From: Candidatus Hecatella orcuttiae
GTDB taxonomy: Archaea > Thermoproteota > Bathyarchaeia > Hecatellales > Hecatellaceae
Assembly (NCBI GenBank): GCA_002011035.2
Contig: MTLY02000003.1
Location: forward strand, 256,001 to 320,000
Length of the DNA stretch: 64,000 nt
Direction: 5' to 3'
The position numbers and the translations under genes were made by a program. The notes beneath the pieces are model-generated. The model ran no database searches, was not told where the DNA came from, and saw only the letters and a program-made list of their open reading frames with translations. Of the stretch, positions 3,839 through 22,490 are shown piece after piece (within the stretch, counting starts at the first letter, position 1; the number at the start of each line of letters is the position of its first letter).

Positions 3839-4144
3839 AGTGCGCCTTGTTTTTTCTTCGGTATGGCGTTGTTCGGCGTAGGTGTTGCCACGATAGTTTA
3901 CTTGCTGGGGGCTGGACTGGGCCATGTACTACTCACTGGCACCTCCAGCCAACCTAATAACCCCAATCAGCACAGCCATGTAAAAACCATGGAAACTTTT
4001 GCGTCCCGAGGTGAAACCGCCTCTATCCTTCAGCGAGCCAAAACAGTTTTCAGGGGGCAGTAATCACAGTAAGTGTTGCTACAGTTGAATGTCGGAGTCA
4101 CTAAGTTGCCTTTTCCAGAAGGTTTTTAAAAAGCCACATATACA

Positions 4145-4402
4145 ATGAAAAACCGGAAGGTGGTGGGTGTGAGTGAAGAAAATAATGCAAAAAATTTGGC
4201 CCGTCGATATTTTGAAAACAAATTCGGAACAAGGATAGTAAAATTAACAATCGGCGAAGCTGTCAAGGGAGCCGAATCTGAACCAGATGTATGGTATGTC
4301 AACTTTGAGTTAGAGGTTACGGGGGAAAACCCGGTGGCCGGCGCCGTCCCAGTGAACGTAAGAATGGGCACCATAAAAGAGCCATCAGAAGGATGGTTCT
4401 AG
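4145..4402 (+). CDS. Hypothetical protein (AT-rich cargo)
   Basis: 85-aa ORF with TTTTTAAAA upstream. Confidence 0.5.
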   Translation: MKNRKVVGVSEENNAKNLARRYFENKFGTRIVKLTIGEAVKGAESEPDVWYVNFELEVTGENPVAGAVPVNVRMGTIKEPSEGWF

Positions 4403-4506
4403 CGGTGAAAAAAGCTGGAAAGTGGTAGAATGCAACAGTATAATCTCGCTGCCATATTAAGAAATCGTTAGGAGCGGAGAGAAAAACGAAGATAAAGTCT
4501 CTCTAT

Positions 4507-5520
4507 ATGCCTGATACATGTCTTCAGGGTGACGAATTTCCAGCACATATAATCTGGGATAAGTTAGACAAAGTTGAGATATCCATCAGATACCCAGAAA
4601 CAATAGAGGTCAAGGCGATTTATAATGTTCCAACAGATGGGATTGAAATCTCTGATGAGCGTTCTATTAAAATCACCGATTTCGAAGTAAACGGATATTT
4701 AGGAATCCTCTTCTGTTCTAGAATATTAGTCGACTTCAGAAAGCGTGAACGCGTACAATTCGAAATTTTAGATCTGCGAAACTCTTCTATAGAACGATTC
4801 ACGAGAGAAATTGATCTATTTAGGCCAGCCCTAAAACTTGAAAGCGTCCCCCCTAGACTCAACATAAAATATGATTCTTCTACCCGCTCCTATAAGATTG
4901 GTGACAAGATTCGCATAAGGAATCTAGGTGATGGAACTGCGCTTATTAGTGTTGGAGTAGGTGAGGGGGACTTCCAAAGACATTATCCCCAAGGAATTGA
5001 CGATTTTGCAAAGGCATTTGTGTGCGACTTGGAAATCAAATTAAACGTTATCAGGTCCGAATATCCCGAACACTCTTCGCTAATTGACAAATTCTTGTCT
5101 TTATTGAAACAGCCTATTACTCTTGACGGTAAAACGAAAGCAATAATTCAATCAGTTTTTAATGGTCTCGCAAGGGCGTTCGAGGAAAGCGAAGGCTTTT
5201 ATAACAACTTCGTCTCAGCGGTTGCGATTTCATATCTAAAGAATATCCAATTGATAACTGAGCTGAAAACCTTCATGGAGTATTTAAATTCAATAGGTGA
5301 GGGAAGAATCATTCTCGTAAATTCGGTGGATGTACTGAAAGCCAAAAGAACTTCAGGACGAATGCATCTAGTCATTCAAATTACTGATCTCGCCTACAAT
5401 GACTATCCCCCTATTGAACTCCCTTCTATCCCGGTAACATGCGAAGGTAGTGATGAAGTGCCGATTCACATGCTATTTGATTGGAAAGCGGGTCCCTTAA
5501 GGAGGGAAGAAGATGGTTGA
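4507..5520 (+). CDS. Hypothetical protein (337 aa, AT-rich cargo)
   Basis: Long ORF in AT-rich DNA overlapping the next gene; no motif recognised. Confidence 0.75.
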   Translation: MPDTCLQGDEFPAHIIWDKLDKVEISIRYPETIEVKAIYNVPTDGIEISDERSIKITDFEVNGYLGILFCSRILVDFRKRERVQFEILDLRNSSIERFTREIDLFRPALKLESVPPRLNIKYDSSTRSYKIGDKIRIRNLGDGTALISVGVGEGDFQRHYPQGIDDFAKAFVCDLEIKLNVIRSEYPEHSSLIDKFLSLLKQPITLDGKTKAIIQSVFNGLARAFEESEGFYNNFVSAVAISYLKNIQLITELKTFMEYLNSIGEGRIILVNSVDVLKAKRTSGRMHLVIQITDLAYNDYPPIELPSIPVTCEGSDEVPIHMLFDWKAGPLRREEDG

Positions 5521-6487
5521 AATTGGTGAAATTGGAGCAATTATTGGAACATGTTCTGCTCTAGCGGAAAAAGGCGTTGGGGAAATAATCAAGACTGCGT
5601 CGAAAATATACGAAACAATTAAAGGCTCCTACAAAGTCCTAAACCAAGAGATCGTGGTGCTCTGCCCTGAATCAGTCCAACACTTTTCTATCGCTTTCGA
5701 GGCCACAGGTGGATTCTTGAGTCAAAAGATTAAGTTTCCTTTTGGGAAACCACTTAGGGTGAGGCTTAGACCCTTGAGGTCATTGCAAGACCTATCCGAG
5801 GCAATCTTTCTTACTGAAGAAGGTTTTGAGATTAATACTCGGGGCATGCAAGCGGAGGACACTTTTCTATTAGATGTTGATTATAGGATTACAGACCCAA
5901 AATTCGTAGATGCTCTTGTCCAAAGAAATCACGCAAGAGAGTTACCGAAAGACAGAGAGAGCGAATACTGGATGCATGCTCAATTGAAACATCCTAAAGT
6001 CTTTCAGACAAAGTATGGTCGATTAGATCTCCGCGACGTAGATTTTAGCGTTAACGTTGGGATTAGTGAAGACATAAAAATGTCCATCCCTTCTGCGTTT
6101 AGAAGAGAACTAGAAGCTGGTGTGAAGCTTCTTATGGAACGGGACCCGCATAGGAAGTATATGCTCGGAAGAGAACATGTAAAGGCTATGAGAGCACGAG
6201 GCAAAGGAAAAAGTGTAATCGAACTTCTCGGAGATCTTCAAGATCTTTTCTTTCCAAGAACTTTCCGCAAGTTTGTTGAGGTGAAAAAAGACTTCCGTTA
6301 TTCTGAGTGCCACAGGGGGAGCGATTTCTATGAGACAGTACCTTTTCCAACATGGCCGAAGACTATGAAAGTCATATCTAGAACTGATCTTGGACTTGAA
6401 CGATACGCCGCAGAAGGAATTCTCGTGTATAAAAAGGCAGACTTTCTTGAACAGGTAAGCAAAATACTTGGCGTGAAGCTGAAGTAA
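5513..6487 (+). CDS. Hypothetical protein (324 aa, AT-rich cargo)
   Basis: Long ORF with GGAGG RBS, coupled to upstream gene; no motif recognised. Confidence 0.75.
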   Translation: MVEIGEIGAIIGTCSALAEKGVGEIIKTASKIYETIKGSYKVLNQEIVVLCPESVQHFSIAFEATGGFLSQKIKFPFGKPLRVRLRPLRSLQDLSEAIFLTEEGFEINTRGMQAEDTFLLDVDYRITDPKFVDALVQRNHARELPKDRESEYWMHAQLKHPKVFQTKYGRLDLRDVDFSVNVGISEDIKMSIPSAFRRELEAGVKLLMERDPHRKYMLGREHVKAMRARGKGKSVIELLGDLQDLFFPRTFRKFVEVKKDFRYSECHRGSDFYETVPFPTWPKTMKVISRTDLGLERYAAEGILVYKKADFLEQVSKILGVKLK

Positions 6488-6830
6488 TCAAAACACCAAT
6501 AGTAGTTATTATGTTTTAACGTTTTTATAATAGTTTTGACTAGCTGAGGGGACTTTAAAGTCGGAGCATAGATAAAGGGATAAAAGAATTAGAGATTACT
6601 TTGGTTCCGCTTTTCCTTCATATTTTTTGCGTAAGTTTCTCATATTCTTCGCTAACCCATCTGCTGTCTTCCTCGAAATCTTTGAGTATGCCTAGTTTTC
6701 GGTGCACTCCAGCCCCATGTCTGAGGTGGTTGGGGGTGCTCCTCGAACCTTGTAGGGGCCTCGGCGGAAAAGAGCCGGCGGCTTCTTAGAGCCACCATAT
6801 TTAAGGGCGCTGATTCTTTCGGGGATTACC

Positions 6831-7595
6831 GTGGAAAGCGCCTTAGGCTTGCTGTCGAAGATTTTTCTAGCGGTGCCCCTGTTGGCTGCGAAGCGCATGT
6901 ACCATGAGGCCCGGGACACCTGGAATCCGTATGTCGGCTGCCTGCACGACTGCCTCTACTGCAAGAAATCCTTCCAACGCCAAGTGGCCAGGGTCGGCCG
7001 CATCTTCGGCTGCGAGGGCTGCATCCGCTACCAGCCCCACTTCCACCCTGAGAGGCTGAGCCGCCGGCTGCCCAGGACAGGCCCCGGGCAGTTTATCTTC
7101 GCCTGCGACTGCGGAGACTGGACGTTCGCCCGCCCCGAGTGGAGGGCCGCCGTCCTCCGCCGCATAGCCGAGCTTCCCGACCGTACTTTTCTCATCCAGT
7201 CCAAGAATCCCGCCTGCTTCCAGAAGGACAGCTTCCCCCCCAACGTCATCCTGGGAACGACCATCGAAACCAACCGGGACGAGCTGGGCAGGGCGATCTC
7301 CAAGGCCCCGCCTCCCTCAGCCCGCTACGCCGCGATGGCCACCCTCCGGTGGCCGAGGAAGATGGTCACCGTGGAGCCCATCATGGACTTCGACCCCGAC
7401 ACCCTCCTGCGGTGGGTGAAGGACATCAGCCCCCTCTGCGTCTACGTGGGCTACGACAGCCGCCTCACCGGGCTGCCGGAGCCGCCCCGGGCAAAGACCG
7501 AAGCCTTCATGGCGGCCGTGGAGGAAGCGGGCATCCCGGTGAGGCGGAAGCTCATCAGAGAAGCCCAACCCAGCCGCCCCGGGTTGCGAGGCTAG
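6831..7595 (+). CDS. DUF5131 (phage Gp37/Gp68) radical-SAM-like protein
   Basis: TWNPYVGCLHDCLYC (CxxxCxxC), FLIQSKNP, NVILGTTIE, VTVEPI. Confidence 0.8.
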   Translation: MESALGLLSKIFLAVPLLAAKRMYHEARDTWNPYVGCLHDCLYCKKSFQRQVARVGRIFGCEGCIRYQPHFHPERLSRRLPRTGPGQFIFACDCGDWTFARPEWRAAVLRRIAELPDRTFLIQSKNPACFQKDSFPPNVILGTTIETNRDELGRAISKAPPPSARYAAMATLRWPRKMVTVEPIMDFDPDTLLRWVKDISPLCVYVGYDSRLTGLPEPPRAKTEAFMAAVEEAGIPVRRKLIREAQPSRPGLRG

Positions 7596-7897
7596 GGTCG
7601 CTTCTTTTTTCGGGGGAGCGGTTTGGCTAAGCTGTTCTTGGTCACGGAGGACAAGGAGCAGACATGGTTTCTGGTCGAAGCTGACTCTGTGGCCAGCTCT
7701 CTAAGGTGGCTGAAGGGAAGGCTTACCGATGCGTAAAGTCTTTACATCAGTGGCAATCTTAACAGTCTTTTTTTAACATGGGGGTCTTCTTTAGCATCGA
7801 TCACCATAAAAGCTAGGGAAATTGCAATTTCAGTGACTTCTTCTTCGGTTAGCTTTAAATTTTTCTCGTTTCCCAACAAGATAAATCCCCTAGGATT

Positions 7898-10456
7898 TTA
7901 ATTAGCTTGATTTAGGGTTATTGCAGGTGTGAAGGTTATATTACTGTTGCCGCCTTCGCTTTTCACTAGAATTCGATGGACTTTACTTGCGTCGATTCCT
8001 TCCAGTTGCGTATGAGTTATTAAAAAGATCTGTCTAAATGACTGATCCTGGATGAGGCTATTCATTACGCTTGGACGGCGCATGTAATCCAAGCTGGCGA
8101 GTGGTTCATCCATAATGAGGCAGTTGATTATCGGTGCTCTCAGTTTTTCTGTTTTGAATGGTCTAACTCTAGCCATCAGTCGGGAGATGGCCATTCGGAG
8201 GGCCAGGCCTAGTGCGACCTTATCGCCGCCACTCAGGTTTCCTCGAAACTTCTGAAAACCATCCATTAGGTCATTTAAAGTTAGGTCTACACCTATAGTT
8301 TCACGTCCACCCCTGACTACATGGGATGTTGAGTATATCTCTTGAACCTGATATCTGCCCGTCGTGAAAGCGAAAAGATAATTGTTGGTAGCATCTTTTA
8401 AAGCGCTGAAGAGGCGTGTCTGAATAATGTACTCTGATATGAAGCCGCCGACGGTTGTCCGAAGGTATCTAACATGTTTAAGTCTTTCTTCTTTCTTTTT
8501 CTTCTCCTTCTCTTTTTGGTTCAGCTGACTGATGGTCTCTTTTAAATATTTTAGCTCTTCCATCTGCTTTTTGACTTCCGCTTTAAGCTCTTTAACTCTC
8601 TCCGCATTATTCTGATAGTCTCTTTCTAATGCAATCCTTAAGTCTCTGAGGCTTTCAAGACTGTCTACTGCAAAGTCCTTTAATATCACCTCAACACTTG
8701 CGTATTTCAAGTCAGCCAGAATATTGTCAAGTTTTGATGTAGCTTCTTTCTTCGCTCTAATTAATTTGTTCCTTTTTCCCAGGTCTCCTTTGATTTCAGT
8801 GGCCGCCTTCTCTATCGCTTTTTGCTCTTTACCTATCTTCTTAGGAATCTCTTTCAAATCTCCCTCAAGTCGTTTTATTTCACTTTCGAGTAGAGCTCTC
8901 ACTGAAATTAGTTCATCAATATTCTGGATCTGATAAGTCTCCAAAAATTTCTCTAAGGATGGAAATCCGATGGATCCAAGTTTGTGTGTGAAGGAATTAT
9001 TTTCTTTTATTAACCTATTACATATCCCTTCGAGTCTCCTAAAGATTGAGAACAGATCGCGTAATGCTTTGCATTCTTTGTTTAGGTCTTTAAGTTTCTT
9101 ATCTGACCGTACTTTCTTTTCCGACATCTCGGCAACCGTTTGTTCAATACCTTTGAGCCGCTTTTCCAGCCTAGAGAGGATGTATTTCCTTTCATCATCT
9201 GAGACCACCGGTCTAAGACATGAGGGGCACTCGCCTTCTTTTTCAAGCCTCTCTGCACTTAATTCTTTAAATTTGACCTCTGCCTTGAGGAGAGCCATGT
9301 TATCTTTAAGCTTCTCTAGTTCTTTCTCAACTTCTTCCAGTTGGGCTTCTCTTTCCTGAAGCTGTTTCTCTACCGTTGGAGTCTCGTCTTTAACCCTGTG
9401 TGGGTGTTCCTCAGGCTTAAAATTTAGTGCTAAGTTCTCGTCTTTTACAAGTTCCTTTATCTGGCTCTGAAGCTCAACAATCTTTTCATGATGCCTATTG
9501 ATCTCCTTTATTTTATCTAGGGTCGGTATGTTCCCTAATTTTTCCGTGGCTCTTCGTAAATCCGCTTCTGCTTTTTCTTTATTTTCTTGTAGAGTTCTTA
9601 GCTCTTTTTCATGCTCGGCTTTTTCATCGGTGGATCGTCTGATCTTCTCCTCTAAATGTCCTAGTTCCTTCTCAGCTTGAGCGACATTATCCAATAGCTC
9701 TTTGATACTAGATATGGTGTCTTTTTCTGGAATTCTTTTAAGCTCAACCTCAATCTCGCGTTGGCTCTTTTCCAGCCGCTTCTTGTGTTCCTCAAGTTCA
9801 GATATCTTCTCTTCAAGTCGTTCCTTATCCCTTTCTTTATCGGGTAGCTTTGCCGTTTCTCGTTCGATCTCATGGATCTCCCTCTCTAAAGCTTTTTCAT
9901 CCTGCAGAAGTATATCGGAGTGTATCTGATCCAATTCGTCGAGGTTGAACAATGTGCTGATAATACTTCGGAGCAGTGTAGGTGGTGCGGTAGCTAGGGA
10001 ATCAACTTCCCCCTGTCGGATGAAGACAGTGTGCAATGCGTTCTCTCTCGATATGCCCATTAATTCTTCAAGCTTAGATTCTACACGTCCGCTACCCTCT
10101 TCCATTACTACGAATTTATCGCCAGAACGTCTGCTCAAAACCGCATCAGCACCTGTCTTTCCCCGCATGTATCTTCTGATAACCTGATATTCCTCACCAC
10201 CCACTTCAAATTCTAATGTTACCTTACATTCAGAGTGTTTCTTTTTCACAAGCTGGTCTTGTTTCTCAACCGGAACCGCAAGTGTTCCCCATAGAGCCCA
10301 TAAAATTGCCTCTATTAGACTGGTCTTGCCGCTCGAGTTTAAGCCTTCAACAACGAAGAGACCTTCAGGAAGACTCTGAGCGAAATCCCCAGAAGGTAGC
10401 TCAATCTTATCGAAAGGCTTAAACCGTTCGGCGATAAGCCTTAAAACCTTCATCAC
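7898..10456 (-). CDS. rad50: Rad50/SbcC-family SMC-like ATPase
   Basis: Walker A GLNSSGKTS, Q-loop FIRQGE, coiled coils around a CPSC zinc hook, signature LSGGD, Walker B IMDEP, H-loop ITH. Confidence 0.92.
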   Translation of the reverse strand: MMKVLRLIAERFKPFDKIELPSGDFAQSLPEGLFVVEGLNSSGKTSLIEAILWALWGTLAVPVEKQDQLVKKKHSECKVTLEFEVGGEEYQVIRRYMRGKTGADAVLSRRSGDKFVVMEEGSGRVESKLEELMGISRENALHTVFIRQGEVDSLATAPPTLLRSIISTLFNLDELDQIHSDILLQDEKALEREIHEIERETAKLPDKERDKERLEEKISELEEHKKRLEKSQREIEVELKRIPEKDTISSIKELLDNVAQAEKELGHLEEKIRRSTDEKAEHEKELRTLQENKEKAEADLRRATEKLGNIPTLDKIKEINRHHEKIVELQSQIKELVKDENLALNFKPEEHPHRVKDETPTVEKQLQEREAQLEEVEKELEKLKDNMALLKAEVKFKELSAERLEKEGECPSCLRPVVSDDERKYILSRLEKRLKGIEQTVAEMSEKKVRSDKKLKDLNKECKALRDLFSIFRRLEGICNRLIKENNSFTHKLGSIGFPSLEKFLETYQIQNIDELISVRALLESEIKRLEGDLKEIPKKIGKEQKAIEKAATEIKGDLGKRNKLIRAKKEATSKLDNILADLKYASVEVILKDFAVDSLESLRDLRIALERDYQNNAERVKELKAEVKKQMEELKYLKETISQLNQKEKEKKKKEERLKHVRYLRTTVGGFISEYIIQTRLFSALKDATNNYLFAFTTGRYQVQEIYSTSHVVRGGRETIGVDLTLNDLMDGFQKFRGNLSGGDKVALGLALRMAISRLMARVRPFKTEKLRAPIINCLIMDEPLASLDYMRRPSVMNSLIQDQSFRQIFLITHTQLEGIDASKVHRILVKSEGGNSNITFTPAITLNQAN

Positions 10457-11708
10457 TTTTCCTCCATTTTTTCATTGCCTCGACGAAGAGTTCAGTCAGC
10501 AGATTTAGGTTGTACTCCTTGGGAATGAGGTTCTTTTTCCTCTTTTCTTCTATGTAGTTTTTGAAGTCCTTCGCGGGATCTTCTATCAGATACTCTATGT
10601 CCACATAACTGATGCTGGGTGGTAAGGTTGAAGCCTTTATGGGTGGTCGGCCAATTTTTAGTTGAATTATATTCAGGTTCCTGTCTGAAAGCCCTTTATT
10701 ATATGCATAGTCGATTGCCTCAGAAATTTGGGTCACATTTCTACCAGATATTTCCCCTTCTAATGCTATCCTTACCCGCGCGGCCGTTTCGTAATCGTAC
10801 GGTTTTCTAAAGCCCAGATTATCCAGTAGGTTAAAGATTCTCTTTACGATATCATGGGAAGAATCGTCAAGCTGAACTTGAACCGTTTCATTTACCATAG
10901 GTCTTGGCAGAGTTAAATGGACTTGTCTAATATCCGGTGCTTTATCCTTGTCTGCTTGAACGATGAGAAAACCTTTCTTATGGTCTTTCTCGTCGAATTT
11001 CCATCTCTCCGTCGAGCCAGAAAACCATGCCTTTTCTGTGACGCGACGCATACAGTGTTCATGTCCAAGGGCAATATAGTCGAATTCCATATTTAGAATA
11101 GTTTGGTCAAGAGTTCCATCAATTGGAGAGCCGTGGGCTATCGCTATATTAATTTTGTCTTTGTCTAGTTTTATGCTCTTGAGCCACTGCTGGTACTCTT
11201 CATACAAACCTATGGTTTCAAGAGTTGATGGTTCAATGTATGGAAACGCATAAACTCTAACTTCATCTTTTATATCAGCATATAATGGTTGCTTTTCACG
11301 GAATGTCTCTCTGAAACTCCAGTAAGTAAAAGCTCGTGTGTTATCGAAGGCGATAGCATACTCGTCCAATGTAGAATGCTTATATTCGACGTAACGACCA
11401 TGATTTCCGTCGATGATTACAATGGGTATGTTTGCTGATTGGAGGTCTCTAAATGCTTTTGCAACAATTTTTCTAGCCATCTCTGGCGGAGGATAGGGAT
11501 TGTATGACCATGGAGAATCGAATAAGTCTCCAGAGTGAATAACGAGGTCAATCTCATCTTTCCGGTCAACAATCTCTTTTACAGTCATTTCCAATGCCTT
11601 GTAGAAGTCGTCCTCAACAGGACGAACTTCTTGCCCTATTGTTCCAGGTCTCACATCATCGGGTCTATGGCCCAGATGGGTATCGGAAACATGAGCTATG
11701 ACTACCAA
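10419..11708 (-). CDS. mre11: Mre11/SbcD metallophosphoesterase nuclease
   Basis: HVSDTHLG, GDLFD, GNHG, AHG, ALGHEH, SGSTE motifs; overlaps rad50. Confidence 0.92.
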   Translation of the reverse strand: MVVIAHVSDTHLGHRPDDVRPGTIGQEVRPVEDDFYKALEMTVKEIVDRKDEIDLVIHSGDLFDSPWSYNPYPPPEMARKIVAKAFRDLQSANIPIVIIDGNHGRYVEYKHSTLDEYAIAFDNTRAFTYWSFRETFREKQPLYADIKDEVRVYAFPYIEPSTLETIGLYEEYQQWLKSIKLDKDKINIAIAHGSPIDGTLDQTILNMEFDYIALGHEHCMRRVTEKAWFSGSTERWKFDEKDHKKGFLIVQADKDKAPDIRQVHLTLPRPMVNETVQVQLDDSSHDIVKRIFNLLDNLGFRKPYDYETAARVRIALEGEISGRNVTQISEAIDYAYNKGLSDRNLNIIQLKIGRPPIKASTLPPSISYVDIEYLIEDPAKDFKNYIEEKRKKNLIPKEYNLNLLTELFVEAMKKWRKSDEGFKAYRRTV

Positions 11709-11729
11709 AATTTATACCTCCCTAATTAG

Positions 11730-13499
11730 TTATAACACGGTTTTTGACCTTACCGGAGTTCCAGCCTTTGTCTGATACAGGGTCCTAGTCTTTTCATAGA
11801 GCGAGTCGAAAAGGGGTGTATAGATGACTAGTGGAGTATCTCGGTAACTTGCTGTTAGAATGATTTCACCTTTACCCAGAACTTTAAATTCGTTTTCAAA
11901 GCCGGTAATATCTTTGCTTGCATTAGAGATTGCTGCCCTTATCTCGTCTGCACTTGTTAAAGACATATTGAACTGTGTATTAATGCAGGATAAGATAATG
12001 TTATCCAGGGCTGTAACCTGCTGACTAATAACCGCCAAACCTAGCCGAAACTTTCGGCCCTGTCGGGCTATATCCTTGTATATGTTTTCAAACCTCATTA
12101 TACGAGGTGTCAGAACCGATGGGGCTTCTTCTACCGTTATCAGAATGGGAGGCAACTCGTCTATTCTCCTCATTTCTTGTTCATCTTTGGAGTAATATTT
12201 CTTGGCTATGGACTGCCCTTTATTTCCGACAAAGTGTTCCCTAAACGTTCGTGGAATTCTTCTCTTCAGAATTTGGGCTTTAAATTCGCTCCAATTTGTT
12301 GACGATTTGACAGCCTTTCTTAATTCAAAAATGGTCCTTGCGATTACTGTTGTGGAGAGGAATTGTTCTAAATCCGAAAGGAGGCTGGTGTTGAATATAA
12401 GAATTCTGCCCTGCTCCAAGGCTTCAATTATCTTTATTAAAGTTGATTGTTCTGGGTTATCTACAAAGATGGCTGAACGTCTCACGAATTCCAGCCGCCT
12501 TTCTACGGCATTTATTGTTACATCAGGATATCGACCGCTAAAGTCTTCACCTATTTGGGTAATCCAATTTTCGTGGAAGTGTGCATACAGAGCGTTCATG
12601 TAACTGACCATTTGGTCGCTGACTTCCATGATTGAGGTGATGTCCAGCGGTAATATTTCTTGGTAGGCAATTCTTACATCTAATGACAACCTTCGAACGG
12701 CCTCAGCTGCCGTTTCACGGTGGGGTGTAAGGTAATAAAAGTCTTTGAAGAGTTCTCTTTTCGCTTCATCAGGCATTGAGTCTACAATAGACTGTATCCC
12801 ATATTTTCTGATTCCCAAAGCAAACTCATCGTGGGGGTCTATGGCCAGCATTGAAGCTCTCTTACTATCACCACTCTGCCAAGACTTGAAGTTAAAGTCT
12901 ACCACCGATTTTAGGAAAACTAGGAGGAAATTTGACTTTCCAGCGCCCGTAGTTCCAAAGATCCCTATATGTGTTGAGATGTGTTCTAACGGCAGATTTA
13001 CTCTGACATTTAACACCTCTTCGCCTGCTAACAGGCTTCCTACAAAGATCTCTCCTTTCAGTTGACTGGATAGGATCTGTTCGATGGGTCTGTCACTTTT
13101 GTTAGGAATAGGCCGATAAATTATGGCAAAGTGTTCTGGAAGACGCCTAGGCATTTTAAAGTCCCATGAATGAGAACCTTCACCGCCAGCTTCAGCATAT
13201 CCGAGTAGTTTCCCTGTAAGGTAAAGAAGTTTCTCTTTCTCAGCGCTGGCTAGATAGGCATCTCCCTCTACCACAAGAGTATCTGCGACCTTGCTTAACT
13301 CCCTTATCCGTCTTAGAATATTTATACAATCCATAGCGCGAAACAGAAAGATTCTCTTTCGACCTCCTCGTGTTGAGGGGATGAGGAACAATTCGCCTAC
13401 GGCAACATCTTCATTTTTGGCTGATAAAGCCAATTCTGTGACTGAGCTCTCTGCTAATCTACCAAATCCTTCTGCCCATTTATCTATATCAAAACTCAT
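11730..13499 (-). CDS. herA: HerA-family DNA translocase ATPase
   Basis: HIGIFGTTGAGKS, IDPHDEF, ITVEEAP, IARQGRKF..ISQQ. Confidence 0.9.
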   Translation of the reverse strand: MSFDIDKWAEGFGRLAESSVTELALSAKNEDVAVGELFLIPSTRGGRKRIFLFRAMDCINILRRIRELSKVADTLVVEGDAYLASAEKEKLLYLTGKLLGYAEAGGEGSHSWDFKMPRRLPEHFAIIYRPIPNKSDRPIEQILSSQLKGEIFVGSLLAGEEVLNVRVNLPLEHISTHIGIFGTTGAGKSNFLLVFLKSVVDFNFKSWQSGDSKRASMLAIDPHDEFALGIRKYGIQSIVDSMPDEAKRELFKDFYYLTPHRETAAEAVRRLSLDVRIAYQEILPLDITSIMEVSDQMVSYMNALYAHFHENWITQIGEDFSGRYPDVTINAVERRLEFVRRSAIFVDNPEQSTLIKIIEALEQGRILIFNTSLLSDLEQFLSTTVIARTIFELRKAVKSSTNWSEFKAQILKRRIPRTFREHFVGNKGQSIAKKYYSKDEQEMRRIDELPPILITVEEAPSVLTPRIMRFENIYKDIARQGRKFRLGLAVISQQVTALDNIILSCINTQFNMSLTSADEIRAAISNASKDITGFENEFKVLGKGEIILTASYRDTPLVIYTPLFDSLYEKTRTLYQTKAGTPVRSKTVL

Positions 13500-13501
13500 T
13501 T

Positions 13502-14770
13502 TTATTCAAGTCCTATTCTTCGTCTAGGATTTAAGAGGGATTCCTCAGAAAAACCCTCTTCTTTACCTATTTCGATAACTCTCTCATAGAATAGATCTCT
13601 GTCCTCTCTAGTTAGGCTGCAGGATAGATGTGCAAAAGCTGGAGGACAAGGATAACCATACCATCTTGCGTCATGGGACATGAAGTCTATCTCTCGGAAA
13701 ATATTGATTTCATTCATTCGCATCTTTTCCGCGTTATTATCATAAATCTTTGACTCCCACCACCTACGGTCAAAGTCCACCCTAAACGCGGGCATTGAGC
13801 TGGTGAAGCTGAAAAGATACGTTACACCTAATTCGGGGGGTATGCGTCGCTTCCGACATATTTTCAACTTTCCACCAGGGTCATCATTTCCGGGAATCCT
13901 ACAAAACCAGTGAGCGTCGGGTCCATACTTCCTTCTCGCAAGTTGGATTATTTTCTCACCACCTGGGATCGTATGAGACTTACTGAGAGCCATAACAATT
14001 ACGCCTTCTTTTCGAGCCCTGAAGCACAAATCCCTCAACATATAATCATGGAGAAGGTGAGGGTAATCATATCTGGCCGGGAAGAGAAGAGTAAGAGTTG
14101 TGTCCAGTATCACGTATTTTAGGTTAAGGTTCGAGTCTAACGCCCTCTTTGCCATCGAAATTTCCGCAGACCACCTAAGCATGTCAAGTATTCTCTCAGG
14201 AAGATGAACTGGTGGACTGATAACGAAGTCGCTTATGTCTGATTTTCCATATTTCCTTAAAATTTTGTCAACCGAATCTAACTTACCCTTTGTATAGTCG
14301 ATGAAGTATGGGACCAACAAGTTATTCAAGTCATTGATCAGATAGACACGTTTCACATAATCAACAAAGTTTTGCCATAGAACATCCTCATCAAAAGACG
14401 ACCAGAAGGCCACGGTTAACCTTCCACCATCAGGAATATACCCTTGGTTCCTTAACTCTTTCAGCTCCATTATTCGACCATCATTTGTTCCCGTATTGTG
14501 AACCGTTAACCCCACAGTTATTAGATACAGGAAGACATCCTCATATTGAACTACTGGAGCCATACCACTTCCATCAACAGCCCCTATCAGAAAATCATTT
14601 TCAAATTTGTACCCTGATGGAAAGGGCTTAAAACTAACTAAAAGCTCTTCAATCCTCTGAAGATCGCTGTCAAATAGATTTGCCTGAGCTATGTCACGAT
14701 TCTTAATTTGGCGATAAGCAGACCGAACTTCATTTTCAAAGTCGGACGCGAAAGCCCGATCTGAAATCAT
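13502..14770 (-). CDS. nurA: NurA-family nuclease
   Basis: GAVDGS, ILDTTL, LSKSH and C-terminal GYPCPPAFAH; directly upstream of herA. Confidence 0.85.
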   Translation of the reverse strand: MISDRAFASDFENEVRSAYRQIKNRDIAQANLFDSDLQRIEELLVSFKPFPSGYKFENDFLIGAVDGSGMAPVVQYEDVFLYLITVGLTVHNTGTNDGRIMELKELRNQGYIPDGGRLTVAFWSSFDEDVLWQNFVDYVKRVYLINDLNNLLVPYFIDYTKGKLDSVDKILRKYGKSDISDFVISPPVHLPERILDMLRWSAEISMAKRALDSNLNLKYVILDTTLTLLFPARYDYPHLLHDYMLRDLCFRARKEGVIVMALSKSHTIPGGEKIIQLARRKYGPDAHWFCRIPGNDDPGGKLKICRKRRIPPELGVTYLFSFTSSMPAFRVDFDRRWWESKIYDNNAEKMRMNEINIFREIDFMSHDARWYGYPCPPAFAHLSCSLTREDRDLFYERVIEIGKEEGFSEESLLNPRRRIGLE

Positions 14771-14840
14771 TAAAGGAACCCTTCTTCTAAGGCTTGACCC
14801 ATAGATATATTAAGTTTTGATGATATTTATAATTAAAGGT

Positions 14841-14865
14841 ACCATAGATTGGTGCTATCTATGGT
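14841..14865. promoter_or_regulatory. Inverted-repeat operator in the divergent nurA/HTH promoter region
   Basis: ACCATAGAT-N7-ATCTATGGT overlapping the HTH start codon; extra half-site CCATAGAT at 14799-14806; TATA-like tracts at ~14805-14835. Confidence 0.6.
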
Positions 14866-15064
14866 TAGCAAATACGAAAAAATAATCTATGAGATGCTTA
14901 GCTCAGAGCCAATAACCCCTAATGAAATTGCCCAAAAACTAAAAATAACGTATAAGACTGCTCAGAGAGCACTATTACATCTAGCGCTTACAAAGGAAGA
15001 TATTGGATACAGAAACTCGGGGCGCATACACATTTTCTGGAAGAAAGACTTAGCAGAAGACTAA
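14861..15064 (+). CDS. Small winged-HTH transcriptional regulator
   Basis: PITPNEIAQKLKITYKTAQRALLHL HTH followed by a wing. Confidence 0.8.
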   Translation: MVSKYEKIIYEMLSSEPITPNEIAQKLKITYKTAQRALLHLALTKEDIGYRNSGRIHIFWKKDLAED

Positions 15065-15088
15065 ATTGAAGGTGAGGTTGAGCCCATC

Positions 15089-18000
15089 TTGGAAATTTTA
15101 GATAGACTTAAGAACAACATTTTTGAAGATGCATTATCATTTGACCTTCGTACCCAGGCAGAGTATTTATCTCTTACTCGAGATGTTGATTATCCTTTCT
15201 CGGCGTTAACCTCAAAGGCAAAACTATTGCCTCATCAAGTTGGAGTTGCCCATAAGGTCTTGAGCAGTATCAGGTCCGGCAGCCTATTGGCGGATGAAGT
15301 AGGGCTTGGAAAAACGATCGAGGCCGGCATGATTCTTAAGGAGTACTTATGTCGAAAGCAGATTAAGAAGATTCTAATACTAACTCCGGCGTCACTCACA
15401 ACTCAGTGGCGTGACGAATTGAAATCGAAATTTGACGAAGGTTTCGTCATATATGATCAAGAAACGAGGAAAAATCTAGAGAGACGGCATGAAAACATTT
15501 GGAAAGCATATGACAAGGTTATTTGCTCAATAGATACAGCTAAACAACAACGTTACCGGAAGGATATAGTAACCGTCAACTGGGATATTATAATAGTTGA
15601 TGAGGCTCATAAATTAAAGAACAGGAAAACCGAGAACTATAAGCTCTTAGAGGACTTACCTAAAAACCGCGTCTTTTTTCTGACCGCAACTCCGCTTCAA
15701 AATAAGCTAGAAGAGTTATATAATCTAATTAGCCTAATAGATGAGAAACTACTTGGAACGTATGACTCTTTCTCGATGAGATTTGTTGACGATACAAAAG
15801 GCTTGGTTCCTAATAATTTTGATGATTTGAAGCAACGTCTCCAAAAAGTAATGATTAGAAACAGGAGAAAAGATGTTTTTGGTGTAAGGTTCACGCAACG
15901 TTTTGGTGAAACAATTCCGTTTGAGTTGACTCCGGAAGAAAGAAGGCTGTACGACGAAGTGACAAAGTATGTCAAACAAGAATACTTGAAGGCTATGGAG
16001 CAGAACAAAGCTGGAAGAGGGTTTCTGCTCATTATCATGCAAAGAATGGTCTGTAGTAGTAGCTTCGCCATAAGAGATTCGTTAGGGCGTCGAATTCAAC
16101 GTCTGGTAAAGATCTCTAAAGAGTATGACATAGTGCCTAAGCAACCTTCTCTGACGAGCATCAGCCACCCATATTTTGAGGCTTTAGGCGTAAATCATAC
16201 TGCCACTAAAGATGAGATAAAAGCTGCTTATCGAACTTTGGCAAAGGAATACCATCCAGATATTTCGCCGCTACCTAAAGATGTTGCAGAGGAAAAGTTT
16301 AAGGAAATATCAGAGGCCTATGAGACGCTGACCGACGACAACAAAAGGAAGCGACTTATTGAGGAGCATGAGGATGCCGATATAAGTGATATCGCAAAAA
16401 ATTTCACTCTGCTTCAGATGGAGCTAGAAAAACTTAATCAACTTTATGAATTAGCAAGCAAAATCACCAAGAACAGCAAAGGCGAAAAACTTATTGAGGC
16501 CCTCGAAGCGTTGAAGCGAGAAGAGCCAAACGAGAAAGTTCTTATATATACCGAATTCAGGTCAACACAAAGGTACCTTTATGAGCTTTTGACCTCAAAA
16601 GGCTATGAAGTCGCAATATTCAACGGCTCAATGAGTGTAGAAGAAAAGGATGAAGCAGTTAAGCAATGGCGTGAGAACAAACAGATAATGGTCTCAACTG
16701 AATGTGGAGGAGAAGGAAGGAACTTTCAGTTCTGCCACATAATGTTTAACTACGACCTTCCTTGGAATCCTATGAGAGTGGAACAGAGGATAGGTAGAAT
16801 TCATCGGATAGGACAGGAGAAGAATGTGAAAATATTCAACTTCTCAACTAAAGAAACCATCGAAGAGTATGTGTTAGAATTACTCGAGACAAAGATTCAA
16901 CTGTTCAAGGAAGTTATCGGTGAGCTTGATCTAATACTAGGCGATATAGTCGAGGATGCCAATCTTGAGAGGGTGATAATGGAAATCTTAGTTAAGGCTA
17001 AGACTTCCCAAGAGTTGAAGGAGAACTTCGAAGAGCTTGGCAGAAAGATACAGATAGCAAGAGAAGAGTTTAAGAAGGGTCTTAAAGACCTCGATGAAAG
17101 GGTTTATGCCGGGTTTGACCTCTCAGTTTATCGCCGAGTGATGGGAACTGAGCTTGAAAATCTAGTAATGAAAGAGAGAATAGTCATAAAACGTTTTTTC
17201 CTAAACTATTTAAAGAGTAAAAATTTAGACTTTAGATATCTAGAGCCGGAAGAAGCAGTTATATTCCAGATACCAGAGGAGTTTAAAAATATTATAAGTG
17301 ATTTTGCGCAGAAGCAACGTCAATTTTACCTTAGAGAGCGAGATAGATTTTATGAATTGCTGGAAAAACCGCTTGAAATAGCTAAAGATATTCATGGGTT
17401 TATAGAGGATTGCGTGTGTAAGCTATGTAGTGGTCATACGATAAAATCCTGTTTCAATTGTTCAATTCATACGTATTTAGAGAATGTTGCCTTCCATGCG
17501 AATGCAGGATTTACTTCTATTCTGAAAAATGACCTTGACTATGTAACTTCTAATCGCTTTCGAGAGGATGTAGAAGGAAGAATTCTCAGAGGCAAGATCA
17601 AGGCTAGAGCTACATTTTCACCTGAAGTTGCACAGCAAGAAAACATTGAGTTGATCACTATTGGAAACAGGTTAGTCGAAAATGCGATTGAGGAATGCAA
17701 AAAGAAAGGACTGACCACCAAAAAACTGATAGACCTAAGCAAACATACGCTTAGAGGGTTTGAAAAATACAGTGGATTAAGAGGAATATTATTTAATTTT
17801 AAGGTTTCTTTCGAATCCTTCGATAAGAAAGAAGAGTTAATTCCAATTGTGATCGATTTAGACCATATGAAATATGAAGAAGAACTCTCAGGTGAGGTTA
17901 ATTGGCTTTATAGCACCGAGCTTTTAGACCAAATTGCCATTAAATCAGATGAAGTCGACGAGGCCTATCAATTGGCGGTAAACGAGTTAAACACTAAGGT

Positions 18001-18364
18001 AAAAACTGAACTCGAAAAGATAAGAGGGAAGAATAAGATGTATTTCGAGGATGAGCTAAACAAGATTGAAACATACTACGACGATATTAGACACACCATG
18101 ATTTTGAAGGAACGTGAATTGGAGGATAAATACGTAGACCTGATAGGCAGAATAAGGAACAGCCGTGAATTTGAAGCCAGAGAAAAATACAGAGAAGAAC
18201 AGAGGAAAATTGAGATTCAACTAACGAAGTTGAGAAACGAAAATAACAGATTCTGGGAGGAGATGGTTAATAAAAGAGCTAAAGAGCTGAAAAAGCTTGA
18301 AGAACAAAATACAATAAAAACTAAGATAGAATTAATTAATTCAGCCCTCATTAAAATCAGTTGA
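15089..18364 (+). CDS. SNF2-family helicase (RapA/YqhH/DrmD-like) with an inserted DnaJ J-domain
   Basis: [54 protein letters not shown]; J-domain [36 protein letters not shown] at ~16172-16351. Confidence 0.92.
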
Positions 18365-18377
18365 GGGTCCCCGACTG

Positions 18378-21300
18378 ATGCGGAAGGAACAGGCTGAAGA
18401 AAAAATCCGCGAGTTGGTTGAGAGATATGACTCAATAATTAGAGAAGGAAAGAAAAGTTCTTTCAGCGAGCAGGATGTTAATAGGGTTTTCATAATTCCA
18501 TTTATCAGAGCCTTAGGCTGGGATACTGACAATATTGATGAAGTGAAGGAGCAACGAAGAACGTTAACAGGTCCAGCTGATTACTCGCTTAATGTGGAGA
18601 AGAGACCCAAGATAGTTCTGGAGTTAAAGAAATTCGTGGAAGATCTTGATACCCGACGGGTCATAAAGGGAGGCAGGGAGGAAAGCTACCCTGAACAGGC
18701 TATGCGGTATGCTTGCTATTTAAAAACAGATTGGGTTGTCCTAACCAATTTCGAGGAAATACGACTTTACTACGCTTGGGAGATAAAGCCCGAAGACGGC
18801 TTGATCTTTAAACTGAAATATCATGAGTATTTAGATAATTTTAATAGATGGCTGTGGCTGCTTTCCAAAGAAAGTGTTACTTTAGGTGTTCTTGACCAAT
18901 ACCAAAAGAGAAGGATACGGAAAGATATAGATGTAGAAGTTCTTGAAGACCTGCTTGACTGCAGGAGATATCTTATAGACAACATCAGCAAAAATAACCC
19001 AGCTTTAACGAGAGAGAACCTTAAGGACAGCGTTCAGCGAATCCTCAATAGGCTTGTCGTTATTCGTGTTGCTGAGGATAGGAACATTATAGGTGCAGAC
19101 AGCTTATGGAAGGAGCTTGATGCGTGGAAAACTAGAGGGCTTCCTACATCTTTCATGCGAAGCTTAAAAGGCCTCTTCCGAGACTTCGACGACATCTACA
19201 ACAGCAAACTGTTTGAAAAACACGAATGCGAAGACTTGAAGATAGACAATGAAACACTAGAAAAAGTCATTGAAATACTTTATAAATACAATTTTGACTT
19301 GATTTCTGCTGATGTGTTAGGGGCGATCTATGAAGACTATATTGGGCACATACTTCAAGAGGCAGAAAAAGGCATAGACATCGTGGAAAGCCGTGAAACA
19401 AGAAAAAAGGCCGGGATCTTTTATACTCCGACACATGTTGTTGAATACATTAGGAGAGCTATTAAAAGGCAAAAATCCTGAGGAAGTTTCTAAGATAAAA
19501 GTTTTAGACCCGGCATGCGGCTCGGGATCATTCTTAATTAAAGCTTTTGACGCTCTGAAAGAATATTACGATTGGTATAATAAAACTATTGAGAAAAAAG
19601 CCTTAGGCTCAATCGCTGAATATGGCAACCTGATTCAAGATGTAGAAAAGAGAATTGTTATTGAAAATCTTTTTGGTGTTGATCTAGACCCCCAGGCTGC
19701 AGAGATAGCAGCAGTAAACCTTATGTTAAAGGCACTAAAAAAGGGTGAAAGGTTGCCATTGATTCTTGGAGACAACATAAAATGCGGCAATTCTCTAATA
19801 TCGGGATCAGAAAAGCTAAGAGAATACTTCGGAGATGATTGGAGTTTAGAGAGGCCTTTTAATTGGGAGAAAGAATATGTTGAAGTGTTTAAAGAGGGGG
19901 GTTTTGATGTAGTTGTTGGCAATCCACCTCATGGAGCCAAACTTTCACAACAAGAGAGGGATTTCTTCTTTGACGTTTATCAAGTAGCAAAAGGTTACAA
20001 GAATTCAGCTTCTCTGTTCATTGAACGCGCCACTCAGTTGCTAAAACCTCTAGGGACAATGGGACTTGTTATCCCTAAATCGTTAACGTTCTCGGAAAAA
20101 TGGAAGGCGACGAGAGAATTTATTCTCCAAAACCTCAGATTGATCGAGATCGTTGATATCAGTAAAGCCTTTCCGGGTGTTCTTCTTGAACAAATAATAA
20201 TCATTTGCCGAAAGGATCCAATGCAAAGCTCTAGTTATAAGGGAACAAGCTTAACATGGGAAAGAATCCTTGAAACTTATACAATACCTCTCTCCCTATG
20301 CAAAGAACTAGATATTTTTCCTATACATGTCGACCAGCACTCTCTCACTATATATAAAAAGGTTATGAAGAAATCTTTCCAACTCAAGGAAATATCCAAA
20401 ACTTTCAGAGGACTACCGGTACAAAGTAAAGCTACAATCATTCAGGGAGAGAACTCAGAACCTCTGTTGAGAGGTGATGATATCAAGCGATACTATCACG
20501 CAACTCCACAAACATTCATCGACCGAGATGCCTTAAAAGAGGATAGCAAGAAAATAACTGATATGAGAAAGCCGAAGATTATTTCCCAAAGAATCATTGC
20601 CCATGTCTTAAAGCCTAAGGATAGAATTATAATAATGTCAACTATAGATGAAGAAGGTTTACTCAATGTTGATACTGTTGAAAATACGATTTTGACGGAT
20701 CCTCAATATGACCTCAAATATATCCTCGCATTCTTAAACTCAAAACTTGTTTCTTGGTTCACGTACACGTTCATATTTAACAAGGCGGTTAGAACGATGG
20801 ACTTCGATGATTACTATGTAGGAAAGATACCAATCTATCCGGCCACACCTGATCAGCAGAAACTAATAACAGAAGTAGTCCAAAAAATGTTAACACTCAC
20901 CTCACGCATTAAGGAAATAGATACAGACTTCCAGAAGCGCGTTAACAGTATACCACGGGAGAAAGATACCACTTTCAAAGATTACTATCTAAAATATAGT
21001 AGTGACAGAACGCCTCTAATACCATCTAATGTGAAAGGACAAATTAAGTCTCTTAAAGTTGAAGAACAGGGGCACCAGTTAGTCATAAAAGTTGACTACA
21101 TAGAGAAGGACGGGAACAGGGAAAAGCAACACAGTGATGTAGAAGTTTTTAGATGCGAAATCGAGAATGAGCCGATTAGAAAATTCCTTTTCTATTCTGT
21201 CTCAAATTATGGAAAAACTCTTGGGAGTGGAAACATCTGGTACAAGATTCAGAACATTCCCCTGGCTAAATTCCACAAAAATGAGGGGCAAAATGAAAAA

Positions 21301-21492
21301 GTTGTGGTTAAACTTATTAATGATTACTTGAGAGCAATTAATAACCGAAGACTGTTGCAACAAGAAATTCAAGCCACGGATAAAATACTAGATGAAAAAA
21401 TCTATAAACTCTACGATCTAAATCAGGATGAAATATCCTTAATAGAGAGTTCTATACAGCGATATTTTGTTGAGGAATCCTTTTACATCTAA
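18378..21492 (+). pseudogene. Type IIG restriction-modification enzyme (HsdR_N-like nuclease + N6-adenine MTase + TRD), frameshifted at ~19445
   Basis: ORF1: LGWD, PADY..ELKK, QAMRYA, LTNF, LGAIYE, GIFYTP. ORF2: VLDPACGSGSFL, GVDLD, GNSL, FDVVVGNPPH, TaqI_C-like YILAFLNS. The two frames meet at AATACATT. Confidence 0.85.
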
Positions 21493-21603
21493 AGAATTAC
21501 CCTACCAAACTAAGGCTTTCATCACTTTCCATGGGAAGATGCATGTTTAAAGACTTATCATGGTGGCTGCCATGGATGTTGATTACTTCATTGAGTATTA
21601 TTA

Positions 21604-22490
21604 GGTTAATGCATAATTCGTTTTTCTTCCTTTTATTCTTTGGCGTCTGATGAGTCGTCTCCTAACCCTTAGGCGTCTCTCCGCAAAGGTCGATTTGGCT
21701 TCTCTGGCTGGGGTTGAGGTTTCCTACTCCGGGCTTGGGCCTAGGCATTACCCTGTGAGGGCTAGTTCCTTGCTTTGGTTTTGATGCACCTTCTGGCTGT
21801 GCCTTCGGAGACCATGCTGGCCGGGTATCTCTCGGCTCACAGGGATGTGGCTGAGGCCTGCGGCTTCAACCGAAACCCTAAGAGCCATAGGGGGGCTCCC
21901 AGCCAGTCGGCTCTGAACAGGTTCAAGCACAGGGTCGGAGTTGAAGGCTTCCAAAGTGTCTTCGAGGAGCTGGCCCAAGGCCTCATGAAGGCTGGTGTGG
22001 CCAAGGGCCGATGGGTTGCCGTGGACTCCTCGGCTGTGAAGGCCTACTTCCGCGGCGACCCAGATGCGCGGTGGGGCTATACAGATGTGGATAAGCCCTT
22101 CTTCGGCTATAAGCTCCATATCCTCATCGACGTTAAGACCGAGCTGCCCGTAGCCTTCAGAATCACCCCGGGCAACGTCCACGACAGTCAAGAGTACCTA
22201 AACCTCTTGGAGGATGCGGAGGAGGCCGACCCTGAGCATGCTTACGGGGATGCTGCCTACGACTCCGAAGCCCTCAGGGAGACATCCAGAAGCCTCTACA
22301 ACCTAGAGCTCCACACACCCAGAAACCCGAGACGTAAGGGTGGAAGGCCCGAAACAGCAAGACCCTGAAGCGCATGCTGTCAGCAGTGGAACGGAGCTTC
22401 TCCCGGCTGAAGCTCTTCCGCCTCAAAGACCTCAAGGTGAAGGGCTTCACATCCACAGCCATCCACATCCTCCTCGCCCTAGTAACCATG
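21604..22490 (+). mobile_element. Degenerate IS (IS4/IS5/IS982-like DDE transposase) with two frameshifts and no right end
   Basis: VAVDSS, FFGYKLH, PGNVHDS, YGDAAYDS and, in another frame, AVERSFSRLK; ATG at 21650; frameshifts at ~21763 and ~22350. Confidence 0.8.

Follow-up and report, generated by a model that had tools for sequence, protein, structure and literature searches.

Why would a DNA motor of the SNF2 family carry the J-domain of an Hsp70 co-chaperone between its two lobes? This question is raised by a gene located in a stretch of 64,000 nucleotides from the archaeon Candidatus Hecatella orcuttiae (assembly GCA_002011035.2, contig MTLY02000003.1, positions 256,001 to 320,000), which in its entirety is referred to as the window and whose numbering is used throughout. 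The gene, here termed SNF2-J helicase, had been noted in a first-pass annotation prepared from the nucleotide sequence, which recognised a J-domain with an intact HPD (His-Pro-Asp) tripeptide, placed in frame between the segment RMVCSS and the second helicase lobe, and a cluster of cysteines following the motor. The same annotation inferred a translocase that either brings in DnaK for the remodelling of protein-DNA complexes or uses the chaperone status as a sensor of infection or stress. In our analysis the described architecture was recovered in all its parts, and we propose that the protein is a horizontally acquired SNF2 double-stranded DNA translocase, which recruits DnaK via a working J-domain on a flexible inter-lobe loop, a reading to which we attribute about an even chance of being correct.

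An intact J-domain within an SNF2 motor

The features of the gene and its surroundings are compiled in Table 1. Within one continuous open reading frame (ORF), Pfam locates the first motor lobe, the J-domain and the Helicase_C lobe in this order, and the translation of 16172-16351 reproduces the 60 residues that had been quoted as J-domain by the first-pass annotation. The segment RMVCSS corresponds to residues 319-324 on the N-terminal side of this domain, and the cysteine cluster was located at residues 775-791, C-terminal to the helicase lobes. The match to PF00226 (74.0 bits compared to a cut-off of 27.8) covers positions 2-61 of the 63 positions of the profile and reaches 80.5 bits in a scan of the whole genome. 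The J segment moreover matches 43 distinct solved J-domain sequences in the PDB at E <= 1e-8, which include the J-domain chain of DnaJ in an entry of its complex with DnaK (5nro_B). Together, the Pfam score and these 43 matches exclude a chance resemblance. The surrounding motor is equally intact, as reflected in its motifs I (GKT), II (DEAH) and VI (QRIGRxxRxGQ), whose residues are invariant in alignments of 12 and 60 rows.

Table 1. Positions of the SNF2-J helicase gene, its domains and motifs, and the features of the island surrounding it.
Feature	Position in window (residues)	Strand	Basis or remark
SNF2-J helicase gene, 1091 aa, TTG start	15089..18364	+	ORF list and translation
SNF2_N lobe 1 (PF00176 SNF2-rel_dom)	15272..16042 (62-318)	+	Pfam E 1.2e-39, 136.6 bits
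Walker A GKT; DEAH	15308-15316; 15599-15610 (within lobe 1)	+	Motif positions in sequence
Pro/Ser/Thr-containing linker ahead of J-domain	16094..16171 (336-361)	+	Sequence; length varies among relatives
J-domain (PF00226 DnaJ)	16172..16354 (362-422)	+	Pfam E 1.1e-20, 74.0 bits
HPD tripeptide between helices II and III	16253-16261 (389-391)	+	
Helicase_C lobe 2 (PF00271)	16487..16813 (467-575)	+	Pfam E 1.1e-23, 84 bits
C-terminal region, possibly RapA_C-like, with charged helical tail at its end	17006..18361 (640-1091)	+	No Pfam family
Cys cluster, CxxC-x7-CxxC core	17411..17461 (775, 777, 780, 788, 791)	+	
Low-GC island with helicase	4100..21700 (~17.6 kb)	.	GC 0.35-0.46 vs 0.5-0.68 outside
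GC-rich (0.65) break in island	6900-7700	.	Composition profile
Putative winged-helix regulator, 71 aa, 24 nt upstream of helicase gene	14849..15064	+	
MmeI-like type IIG restriction-modification gene, N-terminal part (nuclease, helical spacer, methyltransferase start)	18378..19481	+	
Type IIG restriction-modification gene, C-terminal part, other frame (methyltransferase and TaqI_C specificity domain)	19393..21492	+	

The linker that connects the two lobes, taken from R335 to K464, comprises 128 residues in the window protein compared to 27-110 residues in 59 relatives, whose median length is about 74 residues, and the excess thus corresponds to approximately one J-domain. Since the J-domain is inserted into a connection of variable length and is preceded by a linker containing Pro, Ser and Thr, it should be exposed. 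At the nucleotide level, the region contains an in-frame imperfect direct repeat of 34 nt (16331-16364 and 16466-16499, 71% identical and 135 nt apart), through which the final part of the J-domain is linked to the conserved helix ahead of helicase motif IV. This pair probably reflects chance, with about one such nearby pair expected in 21 kb, but might also have been left behind by the capture event.

Following the motor, the final 132 residues are rich in Glu, Lys, Arg, Asp and Gln (46%) and contain no Pro and two Gly, a composition that would fit long helices. An insertion of about 100 residues containing the CxxC-x7-CxxC core (17300-17650, residues ~725-840) was found only in the window protein (P0002) and in its relatives P0003, P0004 and P0005, and the other eight sequences of alignment A1 (columns 801-900) do not contain it. 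Its core probably forms a zinc knuckle.

Contigs of several studies cross the insertion

The stretch is carried by eight public runs from seven studies, none of the runs listed being an RNA run, and four of them were compared over 14800-18500. Run X1, which is a possible source of this DNA, spans the entire region. Logan contigs of the runs X6 (15881-16490) and X7 (16106-16370) span both junctions of the J segment and a contig of run X5 (14800-16324) spans its 5' junction, in each case with no mismatches and no gaps. The three latter runs originate from three further studies, those of the same year and habitat possibly belonging to a single campaign, and they provide evidence in the form of contigs, not of raw reads. 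The first-pass annotation had named a lack of read support for the insert as an outcome that would speak against its proposal; instead, the contigs of X5, X6 and X7 cross the junctions unchanged. The identical protein is in addition on record from seven plus three contigs, the longest of which extends over 1.27 Mb.

Origin and conservation of the J-domain

A search with the J region (75 residues) against longer proteins resulted in 1015 matches among 1093 candidates. In the best 120 of these matches, 119 proteins are devoid of any SNF2 or helicase family and the remaining one is the query itself, and most contain the full domain set of a class A DnaJ, consisting of DnaJ, zinc-finger and C-terminal domains. 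The closest DnaJs among the matches listed are 75-77% identical to the insert. To judge from these sequence relationships, the J-domain is derived from a class A DnaJ. In an alignment of 42 rows, which combines 41 DnaJ proteins with the insert, all 20 invariant columns are kept in the latter, including the Lys and Arg of helix II and the KFKE motif of helix III. The insert contains an unusual motif in helix II and a loop following the HPD that is longer by two residues. Both are shared by the nearest DnaJs and are thus traits of a working DnaJ lineage and not signs of damage. With a mean identity of 0.66 to the 41 canonical J-domains, the insert falls into the range of 0.64-0.74 that these domains display among themselves and exceeds the value of 0.64 obtained for the host DnaJ, a comparison that has to be read in light of the fact that 40 of the 41 rows were chosen as best matches to the insert. 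Its Pfam score of 74-80 bits compares to 107 bits for the DnaJ of the host.

The base composition of the J segment (GC content 0.411, and 0.383 at third codon positions, GC3) equals that of the rest of the gene (GC 0.382, GC3 0.39-0.41), which shows that the insertion is old, and the preservation of canonical features in an old insert argues for purifying selection. A recent capture from the dnaJ gene of the host, which we have considered as origin, is ruled out by the identity of 61% (37/61) between both domains and by their different GC3 (0.38 vs 0.61), with the J part of host dnaJ showing a GC of 0.50 and a GC3 of 0.613.

Search for other SNF2 proteins containing a J-domain

The combination of SNF2_N, DnaJ and Helicase_C, for which the first-pass annotation had suggested an architecture search, is present in the query and was detected in no other protein found. 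A search with the whole protein scored 8000 candidates, of which 7828 were relatives at E <= 0.001, and in the best 120 of them PF00226 was identified in the query only. In a second search covering 1.84 billion cluster representatives, 126,692 matches were obtained, and in the best 150 of these it is only the match of P0004 (query residues 388-1090) that enters the region of the J-domain and linker, while nearly all others either end close to residue 340 or set in again after about residue 405. When the J segment was compared with 258 relatives using phmmer, P0003 was the only match (E 2.8e-12), with P0004 being marginal (0.063). No J-domain was found by tblastn in 96 loci of relatives, comprising 13 metagenome or genome contigs, three loci from the phylum and 80 viral ones, the loci of the window itself being excluded, and a search in which only residues 352-430 were scored (24 candidates, proteins of 600-1910 residues) returned only the query. 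Similarly, the nearest large clusters of the Protein Atlas contain no DnaJ among their listed families, and scans of metagenomes and genomes for the helicase gene at the DNA level recovered only distant relatives of 30-47% identity. No prokaryotic fusion of a J-domain to a helicase turned up in the literature searched, and a survey covering about 280,000 J-domain proteins uses neither the term 'helicase' nor 'SNF2' in its main text (PMC10410713).

The chaperone partner in the host

A J-domain of the described kind would require a suitable Hsp70. The presence of dnaK and grpE in the host, which the first-pass annotation had proposed to check, could be ascertained in the genome, which encodes DnaK (771 bits), a DnaJ whose gene adjoins dnaK, and GrpE (158 bits). 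J-domains occur in the whole genome only twice. Within the phylum, DnaK is patchy, being identified in 27 of the 61 genomes sampled, which makes a link between the DnaK of the host and the fate of the insert plausible. The two genomes of the phylum in which a relative of the helicase lacks the J-domain do have DnaK.

Relationship of the motor to known SNF2 families

Classified by its sequence, the motor is a RapA/DrmD/BrxHI-like SNF2 ATPase. RapA is the best solved relative of its ATPase core, both in searches with the single sequence (E 1.9e-47) and with a profile of the clade (E 3.2e-76), and chains of Rad5 and Ino80 are found among further matches in the PDB. Beyond the core, a weak third stretch of the profile aligns to residues 609-708 of RapA with an i-Evalue of 84, which alone is not significant. 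Pfam RapA_C is found on 12% of the members of the best Protein Atlas cluster and on some relatives of the query, which itself has no match to this family. The score in the NCBIfam test for RapA equivalogs (245.2 bits) is below its cut-off of 576. Since the alignment starts at residue 18 of the query, which is paired with residue 132 of the 974-residue RapA chain 4s20_K (125-132 in other full-length RapA chains), there is no room for the RNA-polymerase-binding region located at the N-terminus of RapA.

Among the families of defence proteins in PADLOC, the protein matches BrxHI (2.8e-112), DrmD (9.2e-108) and HmaA (1.5e-82) (residues 15-644). The NCBIfam scores for DrmD are 368 bits (DrmD_b) and 321 bits at equivalog cut-offs of 950 and 610, respectively, and the cut-off for DpdE is missed by a wide margin. 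At a completeness of 97%, the genome yielded neither PglZ nor DUF1998/MZB (DrmB), and there is no further component of BREX or DISARM among the ORFs of the island that were scanned. With PglZ and DUF1998/MZB both absent, the locus is thus neither a BREX nor a DISARM system. As Pfam and PADLOC detect no nuclease family in residues 640-1091, the protein is also outside the definition of HmaA.

The SNF2-J helicase accounts for the only match to SNF2-rel_dom in the 1.75-Mb genome. Searches did not find it in the 13 remaining genomes of the order and identified it in only two of 400 others sampled from the phylum, in both cases without a J-domain. Its named relatives are proteins of archaeal metagenome-assembled genomes. 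A distant relative of full length (961 residues) is encoded on an IMG/VR contig labelled as viral (locus L071, 7917-17106), where it is followed by the genes of an N6_N4 methyltransferase of 1041 residues and, in third place, of a ResIII/SWI2_SNF2 helicase of 1061 residues, the three forming a DISARM-like trio.

Genomic setting

The helicase gene is contained in an island of low GC content, and 13 nt downstream of its end starts a type IIG restriction-modification gene, with which it probably forms an operon. In PADLOC, the first part of this gene matches positions 6-370 of the profile REase_MTase_IIG (E 1.3e-45) and the second part positions 364-658 of the same profile (E 4.7e-48). The corresponding Pfam families are HSDR_N and MmeI_N in the former, and Eco57I, N6_Mtase and TaqI_C in the latter. 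The methyltransferase gene adjoining the helicase is that of a PglX/DrmMI-like adenine methyltransferase. On the upstream side, the matches of the 71-residue regulator to helix-turn-helix families are all below cut-off (PF0610-like_N, 28.5 bits vs 33; HTH_11, TrmB).

Divergent from the helicase, on the - strand between 7898 and 14770, the island contains very divergent Rad50-, Mre11- and HerA-like genes and an ORF of 422 residues. The former remain far below the respective NCBIfam equivalog cut-offs (e.g. HerA with 65 vs 970 bits), and the genome contains two other HerA-NurA pairs, both on contig C1. This set could constitute an accessory module for DNA-end processing or defence that travels with the helicase. 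An assignment of the 422-residue ORF (13502-14770) as NurA was not supported, since it has no match in Pfam, NCBIfam or PADLOC, a best E of 0.08 in the PDB and no tblastn match to the NurA loci of the host. Weak matches to mad2, mad3 and mad8 had pointed to a MADS-like island, an assignment that was dropped; MAD3-MAD4 is described as an OLD-family ATPase-nuclease module (PMC13662399).

Further to the left, the ORFs 4507-5520 and 5513-6487 are without match in Pfam, NCBIfam, PADLOC and PHROGs. An ORF in the GC-rich stretch (6831-7595) shows a DUF5131 match just above the Pfam cut-off and a weak match to 'radical SAM mobile pair protein A', and the stretch itself gives the impression of host-like DNA inserted at a later time. 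A fragment of a DDE transposase (21775-22368) with a host-like GC of 0.6 directly adjoins the island on its right, and 0.7 kb beyond this fragment a gene of a tyrosine recombinase/integrase is located on the - strand (23097-24029). A search for attachment sites found only short two-copy repeats at chance level, and scans of the window with Rfam and for tRNAs found nothing. Close to the start of the window, residues 36-124 of a 640-residue ORF (514-2436) correspond to the N-terminal domain of PCNA and are succeeded by some 370 more residues. The product is an accessory paralogue of the PCNA-fusion type, the ordinary PCNA being encoded at C1:397042-397764 and the matches in relatives being PCNAs of about 250 residues. 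In a comparison of the flanks in 13 sister genomes, this paralogue serves as left flank gene, and the gene on the right flank could be located in one of the 13 only.

A proposed role of the J-domain and its alternatives

In the mechanism that we propose, a J-domain that was acquired from a class A DnaJ in the distant past would have become part of a translocase. With the motor engaged on DNA, the HPD loop would dock onto ATP-bound DnaK and thereby promote the hydrolysis of ATP, upon which DnaK would clamp a polypeptide located beside the motor. This client may be a protein that is met or stripped by the motor, such as RNA polymerase or proteins of the nucleoid or of viral replication. Alternatively, it may be a partner of the motor, for example a restriction partner, or the motor itself, where the chaperone would act in assembly, release or stabilisation, by analogy with the plant DNAJ proteins acting on PICKLE. 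Given the neighbouring genes, the most likely setting would be defence or restriction directed against foreign DNA, which is the weakest part of the proposal. In its favour are the location on an island, the defence-type relatives identified in profile searches and the restriction-modification gene at a distance of 13 nt.

Several observations weigh against this proposal. The insert is known in intact form from one natural sequence only. In the metagenome relative P0003, a protein of 1073 residues that is 67-70% identical to the query, 26 residues encompassing helix I and most of helix II are deleted, RLN replaces HPD, and the Pfam DnaJ match of 22.5 bits stays below the cut-off and covers profile positions 37-61 only. 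P0004, with 56-58% identity, displays a faint likeness at the site of insertion and no Pfam DnaJ match. The decay of the insert in the two closest relatives implies that the J-domain is dispensable for the core job of this helicase family, and the presence of an intact insert in one lineage, with sister lineages that have let it decay, limits the significance of the fusion. The DnaJs that are nearest to the insert are unlike the DnaJ of the host, to which it is 61% identical, and compatibility with the host DnaK is thus an assumption. Additionally, the restriction-modification gene is split by an apparent frameshift into two overlapping ORFs, with the switch of frame at about 19440-19455, a position without a long homopolymer, and the module may thus be decaying in this host. 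The switch may be a true frameshift, a sequencing error or programmed. Finally, the neighbourhoods of more distant relatives vary, containing genes of a DNA ligase, an RNase H-like protein or a deacetylase and in one case a DISARM-like set, which, together with the absence of PglZ and DUF1998, bases the role in defence on adjacency in this one locus.

The history of the insert is reflected in a quick maximum-likelihood search of the 23 closest of the 60 rows of alignment A2 from which the linker columns were removed. In the resulting tree the window protein, P0003 and P0004 are united with a support of 98 in the Shimodaira-Hasegawa-like approximate likelihood ratio test, with their inner order unresolved, and P0005, which is 46-50% identical and has an unrelated short linker at the site, is found outside of this trio. 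The simplest history would consist of a single capture of the J-domain on the stem of the trio followed by its decay in two of the three known descendants. In BLASTP, residues 365-417 of P0003 match the second half of the J segment with 62% identity. In this protein, 15 residues across helix III and the beginning of helix IV are identical to the window protein, and all three residues of the HPD are changed, a pattern that we would expect if J activity was lost while the helices have retained a structural role.

This history leads to the alternative that the J-domain, captured once by the ancestor of the clade, has no role in the present host and is a passenger or relic on the same path of decay as in the sister proteins, which we regard as rather unlikely, although it is the main rival of our proposal. 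An independently folding domain that resides in frame in a tolerant linker would be slow to be lost, and the range of 27-110 residues observed in relatives illustrates this tolerance. The remnant in P0003 and the probable one in P0004 at the same site, the union of both with the window protein in one clade, the apparent frameshift in the adjoining gene and the single known intact instance all fit such a scenario. In contrast, the insert has kept the HPD and all 20 invariant positions, and it is as near to canonical DnaJs as these are to each other, albeit in a set composed mostly of its own best matches. Its composition is fully ameliorated to that of the gene, in a clade whose members have diverged to 56-70% identity, and neutral drift of a segment of 60 residues would be unlikely to leave 75-77% identity to working DnaJs, an expectation that is not derived from a measured rate.

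A more elaborate version of DnaK recruitment, which we consider doubtful, envisages a two-engine machine, where the translocase stalls at a DNA-bound protein and the inter-lobe J-domain fires DnaK onto it, so that pulling on DNA and unfolding by Hsp70, both driven by ATP, would be directed at one and the same roadblock. In this version, the window protein would represent the first case in nature of a Snf2 motor fused in cis to the J-domain of an Hsp70 co-chaperone. Considered together with the PICKLE complexes of plants, it would imply that archaea and eukaryotes arrived independently at the coupling of Snf2 motors to Hsp70 as a recurrent solution, and the decay of the insert in the sister lineages would then follow their transfer into hosts devoid of DnaK.

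It appears improbable that the J-domain serves as a sensor or guard, through which the helicase and its restriction partner would respond to the state of the chaperone system, e.g. by DnaK keeping the motor inactive for as long as DnaK is not titrated away by a virus or by stress. The defence-like setting is consistent with this possibility, as is the idea that a chaperone of 70 kDa bound between the lobes could plausibly hinder their closure, and the defence protein bNACHT25 is described to need the host DnaJ for sensing phage (PMC12169576). However, in the account given of it, bNACHT25 uses the host DnaJ in trans and is without a J-domain of its own (PMC12169576), relatives of the SNF2-J helicase work without a J-domain, and the sequence holds nothing that would distinguish sensing from plain recruitment. 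That the insert is the product of a chimeric assembly or of a mis-called frame is, as far as contigs can show, refuted and has next to no chance of being true, since nothing specific beyond the metagenome-style assembly and an estimated contamination of 4.25% speaks for it, whereas contigs from X5, X6 and X7, which come from different studies and are identical to the window, cross the junctions, the protein is on record from ten contigs, one of them 1.27 Mb long, in an independent protein from a metagenome a homologous remnant occupies the same position, and the GC and GC3 of the J segment equal those of the flanking coding sequence.

Comparison with known systems

The closest relatives of the motor are the bacterial RapA (HepA), an SNF2 ATPase associated with RNA polymerase, and helicases of defence systems. 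With RapA, the protein shares the ATPase core and possibly, to judge from a weak but consistent resemblance, the C-terminal domain, whereas RapA has neither a J-domain nor the insertion with the Cys cluster and the archaeal protein is without the N-terminal region of RapA. DrmD of DISARM and BrxHI of BREX are the strongest profile matches and have in common with the present locus an adjoining methyltransferase gene, although the equivalog cut-offs are missed, and in the literature searched no J-domain is described for either family. An accessory module between the lobes is by itself not without parallel, as SNF2 proteins accommodate insertions between motifs III and IV, which comprise a RING domain in Rad5, Rad16 and HLTF and the insertion binding Rvb1/2 in Ino80. 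The module in our case is a J-domain, and its site is putatively equivalent to those of the other insertions. The fusion would thus add a new domain to the modules accepted at the SNF2 inter-lobe site and, from the perspective of the chaperone system, a new client-targeting module to class C J-domain proteins.

The precedent cited in the first-pass annotation, the large T antigen of polyomaviruses, is correct in kind, as it combines a J-domain, which recruits Hsc70, with a helicase in one polypeptide. Large T is a hexameric helicase of superfamily 3 (SF3/AAA+) from an animal virus with its J-domain at the N-terminus, whereas in the archaeal protein the motor is an SNF2 enzyme of superfamily 2 with the J-domain located between the lobes. 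The combination of an SNF2 helicase with an added domain is found in HmaA, which acts in antiphage defence and is described to carry a C-terminal nickase of the PD-(D/E)xK type (PMC11232893). The added domain is in that case appended to the C-terminus and in the present case a J-domain placed inside the motor.

A closer analogue than large T is provided by PICKLE, a CHD3 protein of Arabidopsis, to which the DNAJ partners DILL/JDP are reported to bring HSP70-1, with the JDPs described to stabilise PKL and to enhance both ATP hydrolysis and remodelling by it (bioRxiv 10.64898/2026.09.10.750567, 10.64898/2026.09.14.751395). As far as these reports describe it, an SNF2-family motor is there coupled to Hsp70 via a J-domain. 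The homology between both systems is limited to the two shared domains, and the J-domain of the eukaryotic system resides on a separate protein that acts in trans on a remodeller of nucleosomes, in contrast to the cis-fusion in an archaeon. SNF2 motors and Hsp70 chaperones are among the most widespread ATP-driven remodelling machines, and a physical link between them has only recently been reported, in plants and in trans. Compared to this link, the SNF2-J helicase offers a compact system of a single polypeptide for the coupling of chaperone firing to translocation by an inter-lobe J-domain, and as a natural fusion it represents a 'Rosetta stone' case, which predicts that both machines cooperate on DNA-bound proteins.

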